The notes under the pieces are model-generated. The model ran no database searches and was not told where the DNA came from. It saw only the letters and a list, made by a program, of their open reading frames with translations. The position numbers and the translations under genes are program-made. Positions 13,854 through 63,454 of a stretch of 64,000 nucleotides of DNA are shown here, piece after piece. The DNA is from an uncultured Verrucomicrobiae bacterium (GTDB lineage: Bacteria; Verrucomicrobiota; Verrucomicrobiia; Chthoniobacterales; UBA10450): positions 1-64,000 of the forward strand of contig CAWFGO010000001.1 in the NCBI GenBank assembly GCA_963815455.1. Direction: 5' to 3'. The number at the start of each line of letters is the position of its first letter. Position 1 is the stretch's first letter.

Positions 13854-14473
13854 ACGAAAAAGAGATTACTCATAGCGATCATCTGCGCCTTGATGGCGAC
13901 AAGCGCCGTTCTTGGGCAGCAGCACACACAGTCAATCACATTTTCCGGCCCGTCAGTGTGGACTCCCGGCACGACGGTGAACCTCGACGTCTTTCTGACG
14001 TTTGGTGGCTACAATGCGATCGGGCTTTCCTACTGGCTTGAGGTGCAAAGTGCGCTAGCGCCTTACATCACAATCACGAACATCCAGTGGTTCACATTTC
14101 CTCAGCACGGACAACCGGTCTATCCGATTTTCTTTACCGGTGGCATTGGCAGCGAGGTACATGGGGTGAAAAATTTGATTTGGGCGGAACTGTCAGCAAC
14201 CCCTCGTCGAAGTCCGTTCCTCCGGGGACTTATCAAATTAACACGATAACGTTCTCGGTAGCCGCCGCCGCACCGACTGGTTCATTCACTCTGCGCACCG
14301 TCAGCCAAAGCCCGCGGATCTCGGAAGTCACGGATACTGACTTTAATGATAATAACATTAATCCACCAGGAACGTTGGTGATCAATGTTGTGCCGGAGCC
14401 GAGCACATTCGCATTGCTCAGTTTCGCAGCCGTCGGCTGGGGCGTGTTGATCTACCGTGGCCGCAATCGCTAA
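13854..14473 (+). CDS. PEP-CTERM protein with cohesin-like body, paralog of 59826..60497; ACG at the expected start and a frameshift near 14160
   Basis: Signal peptide, HTQSITFSGPSVWTPGTTVNLDVFLT...GLSYWLEV, then a second frame DLGGT...PPGTYQI...SPRISEVTDTDFNDNNI...VPEPST-TM-YRGRNR. Confidence 0.8.
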
Positions 14474-14483
14474 GGTGCGGGCG

Positions 14484-14600
14484 AATGACGAAATCCGAAT
14501 GTCGAATGACGAATCAATGACTAAGCACCAATGACGAAACAGCAGGGCGTTTTCGTCATTTGAGCATTCCTTCGGCATTCGTCATTCGAGCTTCGTCATT
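14484..14600. repeat. GAATGAC-heptamer inverted repeat (empty hairpin) between convergent genes
   Basis: aatgacgaa...cgaatgtcgaatgacgaat...aatgacgaaa / tttcgtcatt...attcgtcattcg...ttcgtcatt. Confidence 0.8.
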
Positions 14601-16105
14601 TACTTCAGATCCCCGAACAACGTCGGGTGCGCTTCCTGATCGGCCAGCGCTTTGGCGCGGTTCTCTCGTTTTTCCATGATGAACTTGTCGAGCGCGGGAT
14701 CGACCGGCAATGGATAATCGCCGTTGAAGCAGGCAAGACAGAACTCGTTCACCGGTTTACCGGTGGCGCGTACCATTCCTTCGAAATCGAGATAGCCCAG
14801 ACTGTCCACGCCGAGATACTTGCAGATTTCATCCATCGACATCCGATTGGCGATCAACTTTTCCGGATCGGGAAAATCGATGCCGTAATGGCAGGCAAAC
14901 CGATGCGGCGGGCAACTCACACGCATGTGGACCTCTTTCGCGCCTGCTTCGCGCAAGTTCACCACCCGGCCCGCGCCGTTGTTCCGCGAACAATGGAATC
15001 ATCAACAACTACCACCCGTTTCCCGGCGACCATTTCCTTCACCAGATTCAATTTTACTCGCACATCGAAATCGCGAATGAGCTGGCTCGGCTGCAAAAAA
15101 GTGCGGCCGATGTAGTGATTGCGCACAAACGCGTGCTGGTACGGAATCTTCAACTCCTGGGCGAACCCGAGCGCGGCGTAATTTCCTGAATCCGGGACCG
15201 GGATCACGATGTCGGCTTCGACTGGGAATTTTCTGGCCAGCTCGCGCCCCATCTCGGTCCGCACTTTGCCGACGTTGACTCCGCCGATGATGCTGTCGGG
15301 CCGAGCGAAATAAACGTATTCGAACATGCAAAAGGCTGGCTGCTGCGGTTGAAACGGAAATTCCGAGCGCAACCCGTTTTCATCGATAATGAACACTTCC
15401 CCCGGCGCGATCTCGCGAATGAACTCGGCGTGAATCAGATCGAACGCGCACGTTTCGGAGGCCAAAATGTAAGCGCCGTCGAGTTTGCCAAGCGAGAGCG
15501 GTCGCCACCCGAACGGATCGCGCACCGCGATCAGTTCGCGCTCGCTCATGATGATGAGCGAGAACGCGCCTTCGATCCGGCGTAACGCCGATAAAACGCT
15601 CGCGCCGTTATCGGCCGGCCGCGCCAACAAGATGCAAAATGATTTCGCTGTCGGCGGTGGTTTGGAAAATCGAGCCTTTCCGTTCCAGCTCGTCGCGCAA
15701 AACATCGGCGTTCGTCAGGTTGCCATTGTGCGCAATGGCGAGCTGGCCGCGCACGCAATCGACCACGAACGGTTGCGCGTTTTTGATCGTGCTGGTCCCG
15801 GTCGTGGAATAGCGGGTGTGACCGATCGCACGCGTCCCCTTGAGTTTTTCCAGCTCTTCCTGACCAAATACTTGCGACACGAGTCCCATCCCTTTGGCTT
15901 GCAGAAACGTCTGATCGGGTCCGCTCGTCGTCACAATACCGGCGCTCTCCTGCCCGCGATGTTGAAGCGCGAAAAGTCCGTAATAGGTCAATACCGCCGC
16001 GTTCGGATGACCATACACGCCGAAGAGCCCGCACTCGTGCTGCGGATAGGACTCGGCCTCAGTCGGCTCGGAGATGTCGATCGTTCGAGTGTCTGGAGAG
16101 GTCAC
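14600..16105 (-). CDS. purF: Amidophosphoribosyltransferase (two frameshifts, ~15630 and ~14965)
   Basis: ECGLFG, QHRGQESAG, GHTRYST, HNGNL; CMFEYVYFARPDS, PVPDSG, VDDSIVRGTT; CHYGIDFP, CLACFNGDYP. Confidence 0.95.
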
Positions 16106-57486: not shown

Positions 57487-58776
57487 ATGACGCTCGCTGG
57501 ACTCACACTTTTGCTCGCCGCGATTGCGGTCCTGATTTTCTGCTCGGCGCTGTTTTCGGGATTGGAAACTGCGTTGTTTTCCCTCAAGCCCCATCAACTC
57601 AGGCGATTGGAAGAGCAGCATCCGAAGCTGAGTAAATTTGTGCAGATGCTCCGCGACCATCCGCGGCGTGTTCTAAATGTGCTTCTTTTGGCGGATGGGC
57701 TGGTCAAGCTGCCGCTGGTCGTGCTCTGCCTGGTCTTGTTATGGGAAGGACCGCTGGCCGGGCGCGTGCCACAATGGCTGGCCGCTATCGCAATTTTCGC
57801 GGTGGTCGTTTTGATTTGCGATCTAATCCCGAAGGTGCTGGCGCTTTCGGCTTCATACCGCATCTCGACGATCGGAGCGTTTACGCTCAACGTATCGCTG
57901 CCGCTGCTCGATCGAGTCGGGCGCACGCTCGAGACTGCGAGTACCGCAGTTGTCGATCTTGTTACACCGGCGGGACTCAAGATCCGTCCGCGCTTAAGCG
58001 ATGAAGAACTGGAGACGCTGGTGGAAATGGGCGAAGAGGAAGGCGCGCTGCAGGAGACCGAAGGCGAGATGATCCAGGAAATCATCAAGCTGGGCGACAA
58101 GACGGCCAAGGATTGCATGACCCCGCGGGTGGACATGTTCGCGCTGCCGGATGATCTAACGAACGAGGAAGCAATCGCGCGGCTAAAACAAAAACGGCAT
58201 CACCGCGTCCCAGTCTATGCGGACACCCCCGACCAGATCGCAGGCATTATCGATGTGAAAATGTTCCTGCTCGACCCGGCGGAACATTATACCGAGAGCA
58301 TGATCGCACCCTCCTTCGTGCCGGAAACGATGCGCGCGATTGCTTTGCTCAAATTATTTCTTACCCACCCACAAGGTATGGCCGTCGTGGTGGACGAATT
58401 CGGCGGGACTGAAGGAATTATCACGATGGCGGACATCGTGGAAGATATTTTGAGCGATGCAGCGCCCTTGGGGGATGCCGATCTTTACATTGAGAGCCTG
58501 GACGACGGGAAATTCCTGGTGAGCGGCAATGCGCGGCTCGACGATTTGAGCGAACGCCTCGGCTTCGAGCTCGAAGCGGAGGGAATCGACACGATCGGCG
58601 GGCTCGTATTCAACCGGCTGGGGCATTTGCCGACAGCGGGCACGGAGCTAGAGATCCCCCGGCTTGCAATAACGGTGCGCCGGGCCGGGCGCAAACGAAT
58701 CGAAGAATTGCTGCTCGAGAAAACAGCCTGCCTGGAAGACGCGGACAGAGGCGGCGACGGCCAAACCGAATCGTAA
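57487..58776 (+). CDS. CNNM(DUF21)-CBS-CorC hemolysin-family transporter
   Basis: FSGLETALFSL, MTPRVD, HRVPVY, VVDEFGGTEG, DTIGGLVF. Confidence 0.92.
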   Translation: MTLAGLTLLLAAIAVLIFCSALFSGLETALFSLKPHQLRRLEEQHPKLSKFVQMLRDHPRRVLNVLLLADGLVKLPLVVLCLVLLWEGPLAGRVPQWLAAIAIFAVVVLICDLIPKVLALSASYRISTIGAFTLNVSLPLLDRVGRTLETASTAVVDLVTPAGLKIRPRLSDEELETLVEMGEEEGALQETEGEMIQEIIKLGDKTAKDCMTPRVDMFALPDDLTNEEAIARLKQKRHHRVPVYADTPDQIAGIIDVKMFLLDPAEHYTESMIAPSFVPETMRAIALLKLFLTHPQGMAVVVDEFGGTEGIITMADIVEDILSDAAPLGDADLYIESLDDGKFLVSGNARLDDLSERLGFELEAEGIDTIGGLVFNRLGHLPTAGTELEIPRLAITVRRAGRKRIEELLLEKTACLEDADRGGDGQTES

Positions 58777-59723
58777 TGGACATCGCAATCATTTTTTTCT
58801 GCTGGATTGTTTCCTTTCTGTTCGCAGGCATCGAAGCCGGCTTGTTGTCGATCAACCCGGTTCGACTACGGCATCACGTAAAGCAAAACTTGAGCGGTGC
58901 GGTCAGGCTCGATCGACTGTTGCAAAAGCCCGAGCGCTTGTTCGTCACCGTCCTGCTCATTACCAACATGGCGGACATTCTTGGATTGCTCCTGCTCACG
59001 CGCCGTTTGGTTGCGGCATTTGGCGCGATGGGGTTTGTCGCGGCTCTTGTTATCGCCTTTCCGATTTACCTTTTCTTGCTGGCTGTTTTACCCACATCGC
59101 TTTTTCGACGGTTTCCGTTTCGGGCATTGGTGCCCCTGGCCGGCTTGCTGGAGCTGATTTCGCTTGTTCTGTGGCCCGCCCTGGAACTAGGGACGCGCCT
59201 GGGCCGTCTGGCGTTGCCTGGCCGAACAAGGGAGCGTGGCCGGCTTTTTGCCGCGCGGGAGGAACTCAAGCAAATCACGACCGAGAGCGAGCGCGAGGGA
59301 TCGCTCACTGCGACTGAGCGAGCCATGATTCATAATGTGGTCGATCTTCGAAGCGTCAAAGTTCGCGATATGATGGTGCCGTTAAGCAAAGTTATTTCGG
59401 TGCGGCCGGATACGCCGGTGGAGGAGGCGCTCAAGCTTAGCCGCGCATCGAGCGTGGATCGGCTCCCCGTGATTACGAGGGACGGGAAAGCGCTCGGATT
59501 GGTCAATGCGCTGGACATCCTTTTGGAACCGGACCGGCAGCGACCTTTGAGCCAACAGATGCGGCGGATTGTGATGACCAGCGAAGAGGAACCCGCCTAC
59601 CGGGCCATGCAGCGCCTGCGCGCCGCCCGGCTGGGTTTGGCGGGTGTTTTGGATCGAAATCACAACCTGAGCGGGATAGTGACAATCGAGGAACTGATTC
59701 GCAGGCTGGTCCAAAGCGCCTAG
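58776..59723 (+). CDS. CNNM(DUF21)-CBS domain protein
   Basis: FAGIEAGLLS, REELK, VRDMMVP, DRLPV, GIVTIEELI; TAATG overlap. Confidence 0.9.
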   Translation: MDIAIIFFCWIVSFLFAGIEAGLLSINPVRLRHHVKQNLSGAVRLDRLLQKPERLFVTVLLITNMADILGLLLLTRRLVAAFGAMGFVAALVIAFPIYLFLLAVLPTSLFRRFPFRALVPLAGLLELISLVLWPALELGTRLGRLALPGRTRERGRLFAAREELKQITTESEREGSLTATERAMIHNVVDLRSVKVRDMMVPLSKVISVRPDTPVEEALKLSRASSVDRLPVITRDGKALGLVNALDILLEPDRQRPLSQQMRRIVMTSEEEPAYRAMQRLRAARLGLAGVLDRNHNLSGIVTIEELIRRLVQSA

Positions 59724-59825: not shown

Positions 59826-60497
59826 CTAGTGGCTGGCCTTGCGGCGGCGATAAACAACCACGCCCGAGCCGACAGCGGCTATGCCGAGCAGCGCGAGGGT
59901 GCTTGGCTCCGGCACGATCGTAATCACGAAGGTACCGGCGGGGATAATGTTGTTATCGTTAAAGCCGGTATCGGTGACTTCCGAGATACGCGGGCTGGTG
60001 GTGGTCGAGCGCAGGGTGAAGCTCTGGCCCATCAAACTGGTGGCCCCGCCGTCGATGGCGAAGGTCAGCATGTTGATCATATACGTCCCCGGCGGGATCT
60101 CGCTGCCCGGCGTGGAGTCGTTGGTTGCTCCAAGGTCACGCGTTTCGTTCATATAACCAGGGATTGCGCCACTGGTTGAGTTGAACAAGGCGGGATTTGG
60201 CACAGTTTGGTTCGGATCGGGGAACTGTGACGAGTAGGTCACGCCCGTAATACTGAGGAAGGGCGCCAGGGCTGTCGGCACTTCCAGCCAATAGGAAAGA
60301 CCAAATGAGCTGTAACCGGCGTAGGTCAGAAAGACGTTGAGGTTAACTGATGTTCCCGGATTCCAGACCGCCGGGCCAGTAAAGGCCAGTGATTGGGTGT
60401 GTCCTTTAGGCGATCCGATCGGGTTCGGATTTTGACTCTGCCCAAAGGCAGCGGTCGTCAGGGCGCAGATCACTGCGAGTGTAAGTAACTTTTTCAT
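59826..60497 (-). CDS. PEP-CTERM sorting-domain protein with cohesin-like beta-sandwich
   Basis: Signal peptide; VPEPST + TM + YRRRK; body pattern resembles type I cohesin. Confidence 0.85.
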   Translation of the reverse strand: MKKLLTLAVICALTTAAFGQSQNPNPIGSPKGHTQSLAFTGPAVWNPGTSVNLNVFLTYAGYSSFGLSYWLEVPTALAPFLSITGVTYSSQFPDPNQTVPNPALFNSTSGAIPGYMNETRDLGATNDSTPGSEIPPGTYMINMLTFAIDGGATSLMGQSFTLRSTTTSPRISEVTDTGFNDNNIIPAGTFVITIVPEPSTLALLGIAAVGSGVVVYRRRKASH

Positions 60498-60621
60498 AGG
60501 TGGTTTTTTTCCTCGTTTGTTTTCTTCTTTTCTACTTGTTTCGGCTGGCTGGATTCTGAAGGAACACTGGTTAAAATTTTTCAGCCCTCAAGCCCTGCTA
60601 AATCTCATAATTTGCGGTTGT

Positions 60622-60651
60622 TTATAGGCGAATCGGCCAAAGAAAAGCAAG
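60622..60651 (-). promoter_or_regulatory. Sigma-70-like promoter, copy 1 (TTGCTT-N18-TATAAA)
   Basis: Minus strand cttgcttttctttggccgattcgcctataa; 24/30 identical to 63560-63589. Confidence 0.6.
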
Positions 60652-60795
60652 TACAAATTTAAGAATTTTTGGCCAGGCTCGGGAGCCACCATATTAGGGC
60701 TCTGCCGGCCCCGAAGCGGTCCAAACGTGGTTTCGGTAAGCTTGGTAAAAGCATCATTTCTGAAGTTTCCGACAAATCCGCCTTGTCGAGATCTC

Positions 60796-63454
60796 CTAGG
60801 GAACACTGCTCCCCAAATTGGATTTGATTTGCGCAACATCGCTGGCGTTGATCGTGCCGTTGGCGTTCACGTCCGAGCGGAAATTTGTCCCATCGGCACT
60901 TGCCCCGAGCCGGGATTTTGTTTGCGAGACGTCGCTAGCGTTGACCGCCTTGTTGCCGTTGGTATCGCCAATGAGGACGTTCATGCTCACGTCGGTGGCG
61001 GCCAGGGTCTGGCAGAACGTATCGGTGGCGCCGCTCAGTGTAACCGTGACCTTTTGAGCATTGGTGACGCCGGTCAGGTTGACTGTCATCGTATTGCCGC
61101 TGAGCGCGGGTGATCCCGAAATGGTGGCCGTGCCAGCCGTGACGGCAGCATTGCCGCTGGTAAGGCTATTATTGAATGTAAAGACGAGCGTGTGATTCCC
61201 GCCCGAACTGCGGCACTCGACGCCGGGCTCGCCCGTAAGCGGCAGATTGACGTCAAACGTTCCCGCTCCTCCGTGGGTTTTGCGAGAGACAGCACTTGTC
61301 AATTGCAGCGGGCCCGGGGTCAGGCCGCCCGTGACAGTGAGAACTCCCGCCCCAGTTATAGATTGACCATCGGGATTTGTGACCATTACGCCCCACGAGC
61401 CGTTCGCGGCTCCGGTCGTGTTCAAGTCTAGAGTGACGGACGTTGGACTGTTGTAGGTCACGGAATTGACGGTTACACCGGAGCAAGGAACGGCGGCGCC
61501 GATGTGATTGAAGGGCACAGCGGGCGGCGCCAGGTTCGTCCCTGGATCATAGAAACCTGAACCAGAGGAAGAAGTGCCCGTAATCGTCACGCTCACAGAG
61601 GCCTGGCCCGCCGCCACACTACTGGGAACAGCAGACGAAGGCGTCGCCGGCGGAGGGGCGAGTAATTTAGCGGCCTTGCAGCCGTAAGTATTTGTGGCGT
61701 TGCAGTATTCCTGGATGGTCCAAATCGACATGTCGTCCAGCGGGTCCAGATCGGTAAAGGAATAATCTCCCCATCGGCGGCCACCCGCTCCGCCTGTGTC
61801 TCCGGGCGGGTTATACGCCGGCGGCGTCGGGTTTAAGTAATTGGGCGTATAAATATTGACCGCGCCTAGAGAGCCAAGAGTATCGCCGACGAGCCGGCCG
61901 TTCGTAGCGCAATCTATTGGAAAGGTGGTTCCAGCAGTGCTGTAGCCTAACGCAGCGTGGCCTTGTCCGGAGACCGTAGCCGTAGGAATCCAATATTGAC
62001 GCGCGGTGGCAACGGTCGCCGCGGTGTCGAAAACGGTGCCGGATTGTACCACCACCGGCGTGCCGCCATTATCGGAGCTGCGAACGCCATTGAGCTCGTA
62101 CCATCGGACCGCGTTACGTCGATTGGTGTTGGTGCCGCTGGCCACCCCGGTCGCAAGAACCGCAATCCCGTGCGCGGTCCAGAGGCGCCCATTCCGGATG
62201 TGTGCCGCGAACAGGTTATCGTCCAGTCCGTCGAGGTTGCCGTTGGTGCCACCCGTGTTGCCCAAGATGGGCCACGGTCCGGGCAAACGCCGTCGAACTC
62301 ACCGTCAGCAAAATATTGGCCGAGATAGTCGGCGTGCCGCCCGGCGTACTCACTCGGCGAAAAACCAACCGGCCAAAAGCACTATTACTAACCCCGATGA
62401 AATAGCCCTCGTTTGCGGTCGGGTCGTAGTTGTCCACTCCGCGCGGCGCAAATGGCCCGTCTCCGGCTCCCACCGCAAGGCCGCGGAAGGCCGTAACGAC
62501 GATGGGCCCGCCAGTGAGAACCGAGCTCTTTCGAACAACGAACCCGGTGGTTTGAGTGAAAGATCCGGTGGACGCGATAAACATGTCGCATCCGATGTAG
62601 AGGGCGTTGTTATCAACGCCGAGCGACGGGTAATCGGCGAACTCGCCCGTATCCCCACCGCCGATGGTGTTCTGTTGGAAAAAATAAAATGTCCACGTGG
62701 TGCCCATCGTGATCGTGCTCGAATCTGAGACGGCGATCATGATCCGATTCGGAAACTGGGTCACCTGATCGGAAGCCAACGGCACGTCGGCCATCATGAT
62801 AAACCAGCGCCCGGAAAGACGATCATAACGGATTTGCGGGTCGGTGGTGAAATTAATGGCAATTCCTCCTCCCAAAGGCGTCAAAACCGAGGCGAAGAAT
62901 ATGTCCGTGTTTGCGTCGAGCACTCCGTCTGCGGTGCCAGCTTTTGCAAAACTTCGGAGCCGGCCATTAACGCACAGAATGAACTGAGTGGGCCCTACCG
63001 CCCCCATCGTATCGGGCGGGAACGATCCGGTTTCAGTCGGGCCAGTTATAGTGTCGAAGCTCAGGCCCACTGGCTGCGGAGCCTGGGCAATTGGGGGAGC
63101 GGCTTTCTTCGATAATCCGGCTTCATCAACCTGTGGAAACCGGGAAATTGGCTGCGCCTTGGGATCCTGAGGCCGGTTTTCTCGCCATGGAATTTTCAGT
63201 TCCGGTTTATCGAAAATCTGCTTTCTCCCCTGGGTTGCACGGGGCAATGCCATGATTTGACCGGTTGTCATTTGCACGCCGCGTTCGCCAATCTGCGGCC
63301 GGCCGACGGTGCCGCCGGGAAGTTCCTTTCCTTCAGTCGATTTCCCCGGCTGTCCGGAAACGGCCACGGTTCCGAGCGCAAGCCCGACAAAAAGCAATCC
63401 CAGCAACGGAGCGCTTAGTATATGTTTGCCAGATAATGAAAATGTCTTCTTCAT
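60796..63454 (-). CDS. Large secreted protein (uncharacterised beta-rich domain + Ig-like domains + C-terminal type I dockerin); frameshift ~62262
   Basis: Signal peptide; PPDTMGAVGP, DPQIRYD, DYPSLG, RWGDYS; VTNPDGQ Ig domain; GDTNGNKAVNASDV and SDVNANGTINASDV. Confidence 0.85.

Follow-up and report, generated by a model that had tools for sequence, protein, structure and literature searches.

A predicted cohesin-fold PEP-CTERM protein as putative envelope anchor for X-dockerin-tagged proteins in an uncultured Verrucomicrobiae bacterium

The closest functional parallels to the system treated here are the single-cohesin anchors OlpA and OlpC of Acetivibrio (Clostridium) thermocellus, where one cohesin on an envelope anchor captures dockerin-tagged proteins singly, and the monovalent adaptor scaffoldins, which combine one cohesin with one dockerin (PMC11557425, which also defines the class "nonSLH-anchoring scaffoldin", SLH denoting surface-layer homology). 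A looser parallel is the planctosome of freshwater Nemodlikiaceae (PMC6461901), which together with the cellulosome-like complex of Ca. Stygibacter (PMC8542988) represents genome-based cohesin-dockerin proposals from outside the Firmicutes, both with peptidase cargo. Here we describe a stretch of 64,000 nucleotides (the window), i.e. positions 1-64000 of contig C1 in the genome assembly of an uncultured Verrucomicrobiae bacterium (G000; 3.62 Mb, 7 contigs, 90% complete), in which the gene for a small PEP-CTERM protein with a cohesin-fold domain lies directly behind a gene ending in an X-dockerin, i.e. an Ig-like X module followed by a dockerin. We consider it likely that this protein of 223 amino acids is an exosortase-processed envelope anchor for X-dockerin-tagged, probably secreted proteins, held through calcium-dependent dockerin binding. 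Behind this reading stand computed results on the sorting tail and the dockerin, on the X-dockerin and exosortase genes of the genome, and on gene pairing and co-variation, together with a predicted fold; binding and location are what we infer from them.

Like OlpA and OlpC, the predicted anchor joins one cohesin to the envelope, but unlike these and other SLH- or sortase-anchored scaffoldins it does so by PEP-CTERM and exosortase in a double-membraned bacterium, and not by SLH or LPXTG. The planctosome, which the sequence-only reading had cited as background, is comparable in being a proposal from outside the Firmicutes, but less so in its parts. It and the Ca. Stygibacter complex are built on large multidomain scaffolds (2,210 and 3,755 amino acids) with a lamin-tail or C-terminal-domain tether, in contrast to the small single-cohesin anchors here, and the available text of the two accounts names neither PEP-CTERM nor a family of small single-cohesin anchors (PMC6461901, PMC8542988). 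Instead of a lamin-tail anchor with P-domains and cohesin, together with peptidase cargo, we found the 223-residue PEP-CTERM anchor, and one subtilase in 41 cargo frames. The PEP-CTERM/exosortase system itself is common in Verrucomicrobiota (PMC1569441; bioRxiv 10.1101/2023.06.07.544157) and is represented in this genome by canonical tails and exosortase genes. While known PEP-CTERM substrates have been treated as end products for flocs or biofilms, the substrate proposed here would be a receptor, extending sorting to dozens of proteins without a tail of their own. In anaerobic methanotrophic (ANME) archaea, cohesin and dockerin domains and archaeosortases are both present and are discussed separately (PMC5244752). 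A search of full-text literature returned no paper joining cohesin or dockerin with PEP-CTERM, and no dockerin mention among the papers listed for Chthoniobacterales, Spartobacteria or Udaeobacter, most subscription papers being outside the reach of both searches. As read here, the system works like an anchoring scaffoldin, with the PEP-CTERM anchor as its new feature, and is not a cellulosome.

The anchor gene consists of the following parts.

59826..60497, minus strand: anchor gene, 223 amino acids, with signal peptide, cohesin-fold domain and PEP-CTERM (open reading frame (ORF) list, Pfam/NCBIfam, AlphaFold, structure search)
60441..60497, minus strand: probable Sec signal peptide, residues 1-19 (judged by eye)
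59916..60401, minus strand: cohesin-fold domain, residues 33-194 (AlphaFold, structure search, conservation)
59838..59915, minus strand: PEP-CTERM sorting signal, i.e. PEP motif, transmembrane helix and basic tail (PF07589, TIGR02595)

The ORF is intact and runs from a hydrophobic N-terminus through a body of about 162 residues to a VPEP-TM-RRRK tail (TM, transmembrane helix), in agreement with the sequence-only reading, which had seen a signal peptide, a beta-rich domain and this tail. Both tail profiles score above their cut-offs (PF07589 27.2 bits, cut-off 20.7; TIGR02595 27.4, cut-off 16), so that the protein has the PEP motif, transmembrane helix, basic tail and, by eye only, N-terminal signal peptide of a PEP-CTERM protein. 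The same N-terminal pattern recurs in the consensus of 82 homologs. Homologs of the anchor carry the taxonomic label Verrucomicrobiota. By employing a body-only profile, 372 clusters at 50% identity were obtained. Among the 150 representatives listed, the end of the domain is complete and followed by a tail in 109, and 93 of these carry a PEP tail by pattern match, the other 16 having mostly variant tails or fusions, some with X-dockerin; two matched domain stretches were seen in only one of the 150. Motifs of the family are GLSYWLE and DLG, and S39, W41, E43, G94 and S143 are among its conserved residues.

The AlphaFold2 model of the domain, built on 82 sequences, is nearly all beta, with a predicted local distance difference test (pLDDT) score of 96.4 and a predicted template modelling (pTM) score of 0.90, and agrees with the nine-stranded jelly-roll beta-sandwich of about 140-170 residues that is typical of cohesins. 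Used as query against 48,161 solved chains, it retrieved cohesins at ranks 1-17 (Z 13.7 to 9.9), with 6kgc_A as the best match (Z 13.7, root mean square deviation (rmsd) 2.3, 136 aligned residues, 16% identity), followed by e.g. 2vo8 (Z 13.5), 2w1n (13.3) and 5nrk (12.8). The cohesins of OlpA (3ul4, Z 12.5) and OlpC (4dh2, Z 12.3), with 9-11% sequence identity to the domain, and that of Archaeoglobus (10.9) are among the matches, and Foldseek likewise places cohesins at ranks 1-2. The cohesin fold expected from the by-eye comparison with type I cohesins was recovered in the predicted model; the comparison itself found no counterpart in any sequence match, and the label type I was not established, as type I, Clostridium perfringens and Ruminococcus cohesins are mixed within about 1.5 Z units at the top, with type II lower (9.8-9.9). 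By its predicted fold, though not by sequence profile, the anchor protein is a cohesin. Neither NCBIfam nor Pfam has a profile naming the domain; ruminococcal cohesins likewise escape profiles (PMC11557425). The ESM Atlas (best match 0.84) gave leads only, namely a cluster with Cohesin in 19% of its members (0.80) and one with PEP-CTERM in 26% and Cohesin in 11% (0.78), the latter suggesting that the combination of PEP-CTERM and Cohesin already exists in the database annotation of other phyla.

Directly upstream lies the cargo gene, with these features.

62216..63454, minus strand: 5' ORF of the cargo gene, 412 amino acids in the ORF list, about 397 codons of it being in the true frame; probable signal peptide at its start
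60796..62286, minus strand: 3' ORF of the cargo gene, 496 amino acids as listed, with body, X module and dockerin
60976..61305, minus strand: X module, an Ig/CopC-like beta-sandwich of about 110 amino acids (conserved, model, structure search)
60799..60975, minus strand: dockerin, two repeats of calcium loop plus helix (PF00404, model, conservation)
62261..62263, minus strand: frameshift, where a G run is one base longer than in an ortholog; probably an assembly indel

The dockerin (PF00404 34.6 bits, cut-off 22.9, at 60814-60969, minus strand) is duplicated as originally seen, each repeat consisting of a calcium loop followed by a helix (123-130 and 154-162 in the model), as in type I dockerin repeats. 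Both repeats have A-S at positions 10-11, as had been noted, and K-S at 17-18. D or N occupies positions 1, 3, 5, 9 and 12 in both, i.e. the calcium positions of the loop (PMC5590126), and in an alignment of 63 sequences D114, D125 and D156 are invariant and D145 is found in 98%. The X module had been missed at first. It is joined to the dockerin without a linker, and the X-dockerin model reaches a pLDDT of 97.7. Structure searches with this model were filled by the X module and gave no strong dockerin row and no clear family for the module, its best match (Z 8.6) being a generic sandwich. An Ig-like module fused directly before a dockerin is also found in the type II X-dockerin dyad of CipA. 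The resemblance between the two modules is weak, the X-dockerin chains 5g5d_B and 2b59_B giving poor Foldseek matches (E about 0.01-0.02, template modelling score about 0.3, rmsd about 12), and unlike the dyad of CipA, which tags one scaffoldin, the one here tags about 45 cargo genes. Outside the dockerin, the cargo protein has no Pfam, NCBIfam or PDB match; its ortholog falls, at 0.95, in an ESM Atlas cluster made up of hypothetical proteins with a TIG domain.

The secreted protein of about 885 residues inferred earlier has the right length as a read-through (397 + 488 codons), but in this sequence the gene is split into two overlapping ORFs. A same-genus ortholog, with 72% identity to the 5' and 86% to the 3' ORF, is one open frame of 884 codons directly before the same anchor gene, for which reason a programmed frameshift at 62262 was rejected. 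Relative to this ortholog the window has one base more in the G run, and the base at 62263 is missing in one contig each from two of four related metagenome DNA runs. These runs, all of one study, share few sequence words with the stretch and their contigs come from relatives, mostly less than 95% alike, none of which spans it; no RNA run was listed as holding it. The break, and that in the paralog at 13854 (see below), are probably assembly indels, because purF in the same window (14600-16105, minus strand) is also broken, its profile positions 1-134, 145-350 and 355-432 being spread over three ORFs in a row. That both frameshifted genes are instead true pseudogenes of a locus decaying in this strain seems very improbable: two breaks in purF and the splitting of many further frames are what an assembly rich in indels would show, the cargo ortholog is intact, and so are the anchor gene and the further copy at C1:322718-323533. 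Decay in one strain would moreover leave the system of the family unaffected.

In the source genome as a whole, 46 Dockerin_1 matches were found, and with custom profiles built from 40 X-module and 42 dockerin sequences we found 46 X-module and 48 dockerin frames, 47 of the latter behind an X module. We count about 45 X-dockerin genes, because some of the 48 frames are fragments of broken genes. K occupies position 17 in 39 of the 41 dockerins (42 aligned) readable at repeat 1, which therefore form essentially one class. Cohesin-like copies number five, three with PEP-CTERM (at 59.9 kb, 13.9 kb and 322.8 kb) and two fused to X-dockerin. Besides the anchor gene itself, these are as follows.

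13854..14473, plus strand: paralogous cohesin-fold PEP-CTERM gene, 52-57% identical, with no dockerin gene beside it
C1:322718-323533: second intact PEP-tailed cohesin-like copy
C3:75296-76450: fusion of cohesin, X module and dockerin, 377 amino acids
C1:1028689-1030635: fusion of X module, dockerin, cohesin, PT linker, InlB B-repeat and two chitobiase C-terminal domains

The paralog at 13854 is where it had been placed, though split into two frames (13917-14120 and 14156-14389) and with ACG in place of a start. The layout of the two fusions is that of the monovalent adaptor scaffoldins, but unlike in those there is no evidence of a switched binding type. All five copies are single domains, and no multi-cohesin scaffoldin was found in this 90% complete genome, where more distant cohesins could be missed. 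For exosortase, five PF09721 matches were obtained at four loci (one split), two of them above the TIGR02602 cut-off, so that the sorting enzyme accompanies its putative substrates. Four secretin matches may point to an outer-membrane route. The census of dockerin proteins, anchors and exosortase called for at the outset has thus turned up all three.

The cargo was scanned with Pfam (E<=1e-5) in 40 dockerin frames of the genome plus the one ortholog, leaving aside the window's own frame (scanned separately), a near-duplicate, a second match that overlapped another, and three fragments of short length. The 41 frames yielded FG-GAP, Kelch, DUF5122, BNR, cadherin-like, RHS (two), subtilase, phosphoesterase and PMP repeat domains, while about half had the dockerin alone or no match; NCBIfam, run on 22 frames, added choice-of-anchor J, L and Q domains. 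No Pfam glycoside hydrolase was found in the 41 frames, many of which are partial or unannotated, in line with the earlier suggestion of non-cellulolytic cargo. A true cellulosome was rejected, neither a multi-cohesin scaffoldin in the 90% complete genome nor a Pfam glycoside hydrolase in the frames scanned having been found, and this also separates the system from that of OlpA and OlpC.

A few cargo genes stand out in their own right. Two RHS-repeat proteins (G000:C1:593872-596535 and C3:729372-735176) have the X-dockerin internally, before their C-terminal part, and are possibly surface-tethered antibacterial RHS proteins. A frame of 3,473 codons with cadherin-like repeats and an X-dockerin end (C1:1268137-1278555) is a candidate giant adhesin. 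Two tandem X-dockerin genes of 812 and 813 codons (C3:129759-134759) have near-identical X-dockerin ends, owing to either a recent duplication or an assembly artefact.

Among 121 genomes of the family, X-dockerin was found in 84 and the cohesin-like domain in 46, all of them among the 84 and none among the other 37. A wider profile added the domain in seven of the 38 remaining X-dockerin genomes and in none of 20 X-dockerin-negative ones searched out of the 37. The same applies to 135 genomes from other families of the order, where the seven genomes that have the domain all belong to the 18 showing a Dockerin_1 match, as opposed to none of the 117 without. Fisher tests gave 3e-10 and 2e-7, values which are overstated since kin are not independent.

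Gene order points in the same direction. With 1.5-kb flanks, 12 of 30 loci have a dockerin gene as their immediate upstream neighbor in the same orientation, and so do 15 of 20 regions around weaker matches (two more being fused and three without), five of eight newly found distant loci, and 13 of 20 loci of a last set, several of which were chosen in the knowledge that a dockerin was near. As a control in the source genome, a dockerin gene precedes only one of 15 other PEP-CTERM genes. In total, 47 pairs from 37 genomes have the domain directly behind an X-dockerin gene. Tandem units of a large X-dockerin gene and a cohesin-PEP-CTERM gene occur in G239 (C1:47400-67300), G207 (C11), G014 (C9) and G220 (C2), with near-identical anchors, and G067 and G130 have a single dockerin match each, less than 300 nt before a cohesin-like domain. 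There are also Rosetta-stone fusions of the cohesin-like domain with X-dockerin. Separately, a PEP-CTERM gene without a match to the cohesin-like profile (G000:C1:1115660-1116568) lies 149 nt behind an X-dockerin phosphoesterase gene.

Co-variation was examined with the X module as control, because it has the same genic history as the dockerin encoded next to it. For 36 pairs, cohesin and dockerin showed a partial rank correlation, given X, of 0.48 (reached in 0 of 2000 shuffles), as compared to 0.19 (p 0.01) for cohesin with X given dockerin; with one pair per genome (37 genomes), the correlations were 0.36 and 0.19, respectively. Positions 11, 18 and 22 of the dockerin repeat we take to be recognition positions. 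In a tree of the 47 paired domains, one cohesin clade pairs with dockerins whose two repeats both have G at 11 and R at 17; the dockerins paired with the clade of the window have S, A or T at 11 and K or Q at 17. Both kinds of pair are present in G207 and in G209, each cohesin beside its own dockerin. Between the clades (13 versus 10 genomes), 14 of 59 dockerin columns but only 8 of 108 X columns are separating, a difference to be read with the caution that the clades were picked by eye with the dockerin motifs visible on the tree labels, and that 19 of the 47 pairs were left out. The best separating columns are position 17 of both repeats, followed by 13, 15, 2, 11, 10 and 14; positions 10 and 17 are among the known recognition positions (PMC5590126). 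Shared history or linkage of neighboring genes can produce part of this signal. Complex prediction for the domain (147-row alignment) and the isolated dockerin (62 residues, 63 rows), with calcium and X module left out, gave scores of 0.01 and 0.11, the mark being 0.32; as the dockerin fold was uncertain in these runs and the controls did not fold, the scores count neither for nor against the pairing.

Besides these two cautions on co-variation, several observations weigh against the proposed anchor. At the level of sequence, PF00963 (Pfam Cohesin) matches neither the anchor, nor 82 or 49 family members, nor anything else in the source genome; the domain has no match among PDB sequences (three alignments searched), is only 10-17% identical to its structural matches, and in hhalign reaches a probability of 0.1% against 14 PF00963-positive domains of the phylum, admittedly a shallow set. 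The first non-cohesin, the CLIPPER adhesin domain (9ifr), follows at Z 9.9 and is third in Foldseek. Among the genomes, 31 of the 84 with X-dockerin have no detectable cohesin-like domain even with the wider profile, e.g. G101, G241 with its 64 X-dockerin match rows, and genus g8, whose three genomes checked (G084, G177 and G222) have 11-16 X-dockerin matches and 0-2 PEP-CTERM matches; such genomes may depend on a cohesin too distant for the profiles or on a different type of anchor. Only one of the three PEP-tailed copies in the source genome adjoins a dockerin gene, and two of the 22 cargo frames match an NCBIfam glycosylhydrolase model far below its cut-off, many frames being partial. Lastly, what becomes of PEP-CTERM proteins once processed is not settled for cultured models either (PMC12188702).

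Much of this would also suit a domain that is a cohesin-like adhesion or glycan-binding sandwich no longer binding dockerins, i.e. a "choice-of-anchor" passenger carried on a PEP-CTERM or X-dockerin tail, in which case the dockerins would bind something else and the pairing would reflect co-transferred clusters of surface genes. The tail attached to the same body indeed varies, being a PEP tail, an X-dockerin or something else, and pilin domains join CLIPPER as structural neighbors; together with the silence of the cohesin profiles and the 31 genomes without a copy, this keeps the idea in play, although we hold it to be improbable. Cohesins outrank every other fold by up to 3.8 Z units, the domain was found in none of the dockerin-negative genomes searched (0/37, 0/20 and 0/117), only one of the 15 other PEP-CTERM genes of the source genome is paired with a dockerin gene, and the domain tracks the dockerin better than it does the X module of the same gene.

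For the anchor that we favor, the following course of events is proposed. Both partners would cross the inner membrane by Sec, after which exosortase would cut off the PEP-CTERM tail, leaving the cohesin attached to the envelope or the extracellular matrix, where it would capture X-dockerin cargo in a calcium-dependent manner. The X module may stiffen its dockerin in the way known from type II X-dockerin dyads, and two similar dockerin repeats would allow dual-mode binding. The three anchors, of one specificity class, would serve many cargo proteins, i.e. beta-propellers, cadherin-like and PMP-like adhesins, a subtilase, a phosphoesterase and RHS proteins, and the two cohesin/X-dockerin fusions could act as monovalent adaptors extending chains. 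The predicted outcome is one-to-one or short-chain surface display like that of OlpA and OlpC, without a multi-cohesin cellulosome.

The modules might also bind for another purpose than display at the outer surface, with exosortase freeing the cohesin or leaving it in the periplasm, where it would help X-dockerin proteins to fold or to be exported, or with cross-linking of these proteins into a cell-free extracellular matrix. For PEP-CTERM proteins, anchoring and release have both been considered, and some stay periplasmic (PMC12188702); the one-to-one tandem pairs in several genomes fit a dedicated partner, and adaptor fusions could polymerise without a cell anchor. We nevertheless regard this as unlikely, as about 45 tagged genes face three anchors in the source genome, most of them without an adjoining partner, which fits a shared dock, the cargo types are adhesin-like or extracellular, and exosortase loss in Nostoc causes a cell-surface defect (PMC12188702).

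Extended to the whole, widespread Chthoniobacterales-like family, the envelope anchor would make cohesin-dockerin pairing a general second-tier sorting code of the double-membraned cell, where a few exosortase-sorted cohesins, invisible by sequence, display up to 45-60 X-dockerin proteins, and where orthogonal classes, defined in both repeats by S/A at position 11 with K/Q at 17 versus G with R, occur side by side in one genome and address different cargo to different docks. We put this forward tentatively, its chances being somewhat short of even. The domain is a candidate for the missing partner of many orphan dockerins, given that X-dockerin tags occur in 84 of the 121 sampled family genomes, often by the dozen. 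If the reading is true, PEP-CTERM proteins would act as receptors and so have a concrete molecular role, and what look like natural specificity classes would offer new orthogonal pairs for designer enzyme display. Two small, soluble domains of an uncultured lineage also make the role of non-cellulosomal cohesin-dockerin pairs in Gram-negatives testable.

Elsewhere in the window, two tandem genes of the HlyC/CorC (CNNM) type (57487-59723, plus strand) converge on the anchor gene, with no evident link to it. Just past the stop codon of the paralog at 13854, the region 14475-14600 contains a short motif in direct and inverted copies which, by eye, resembles a repetitive palindromic element.

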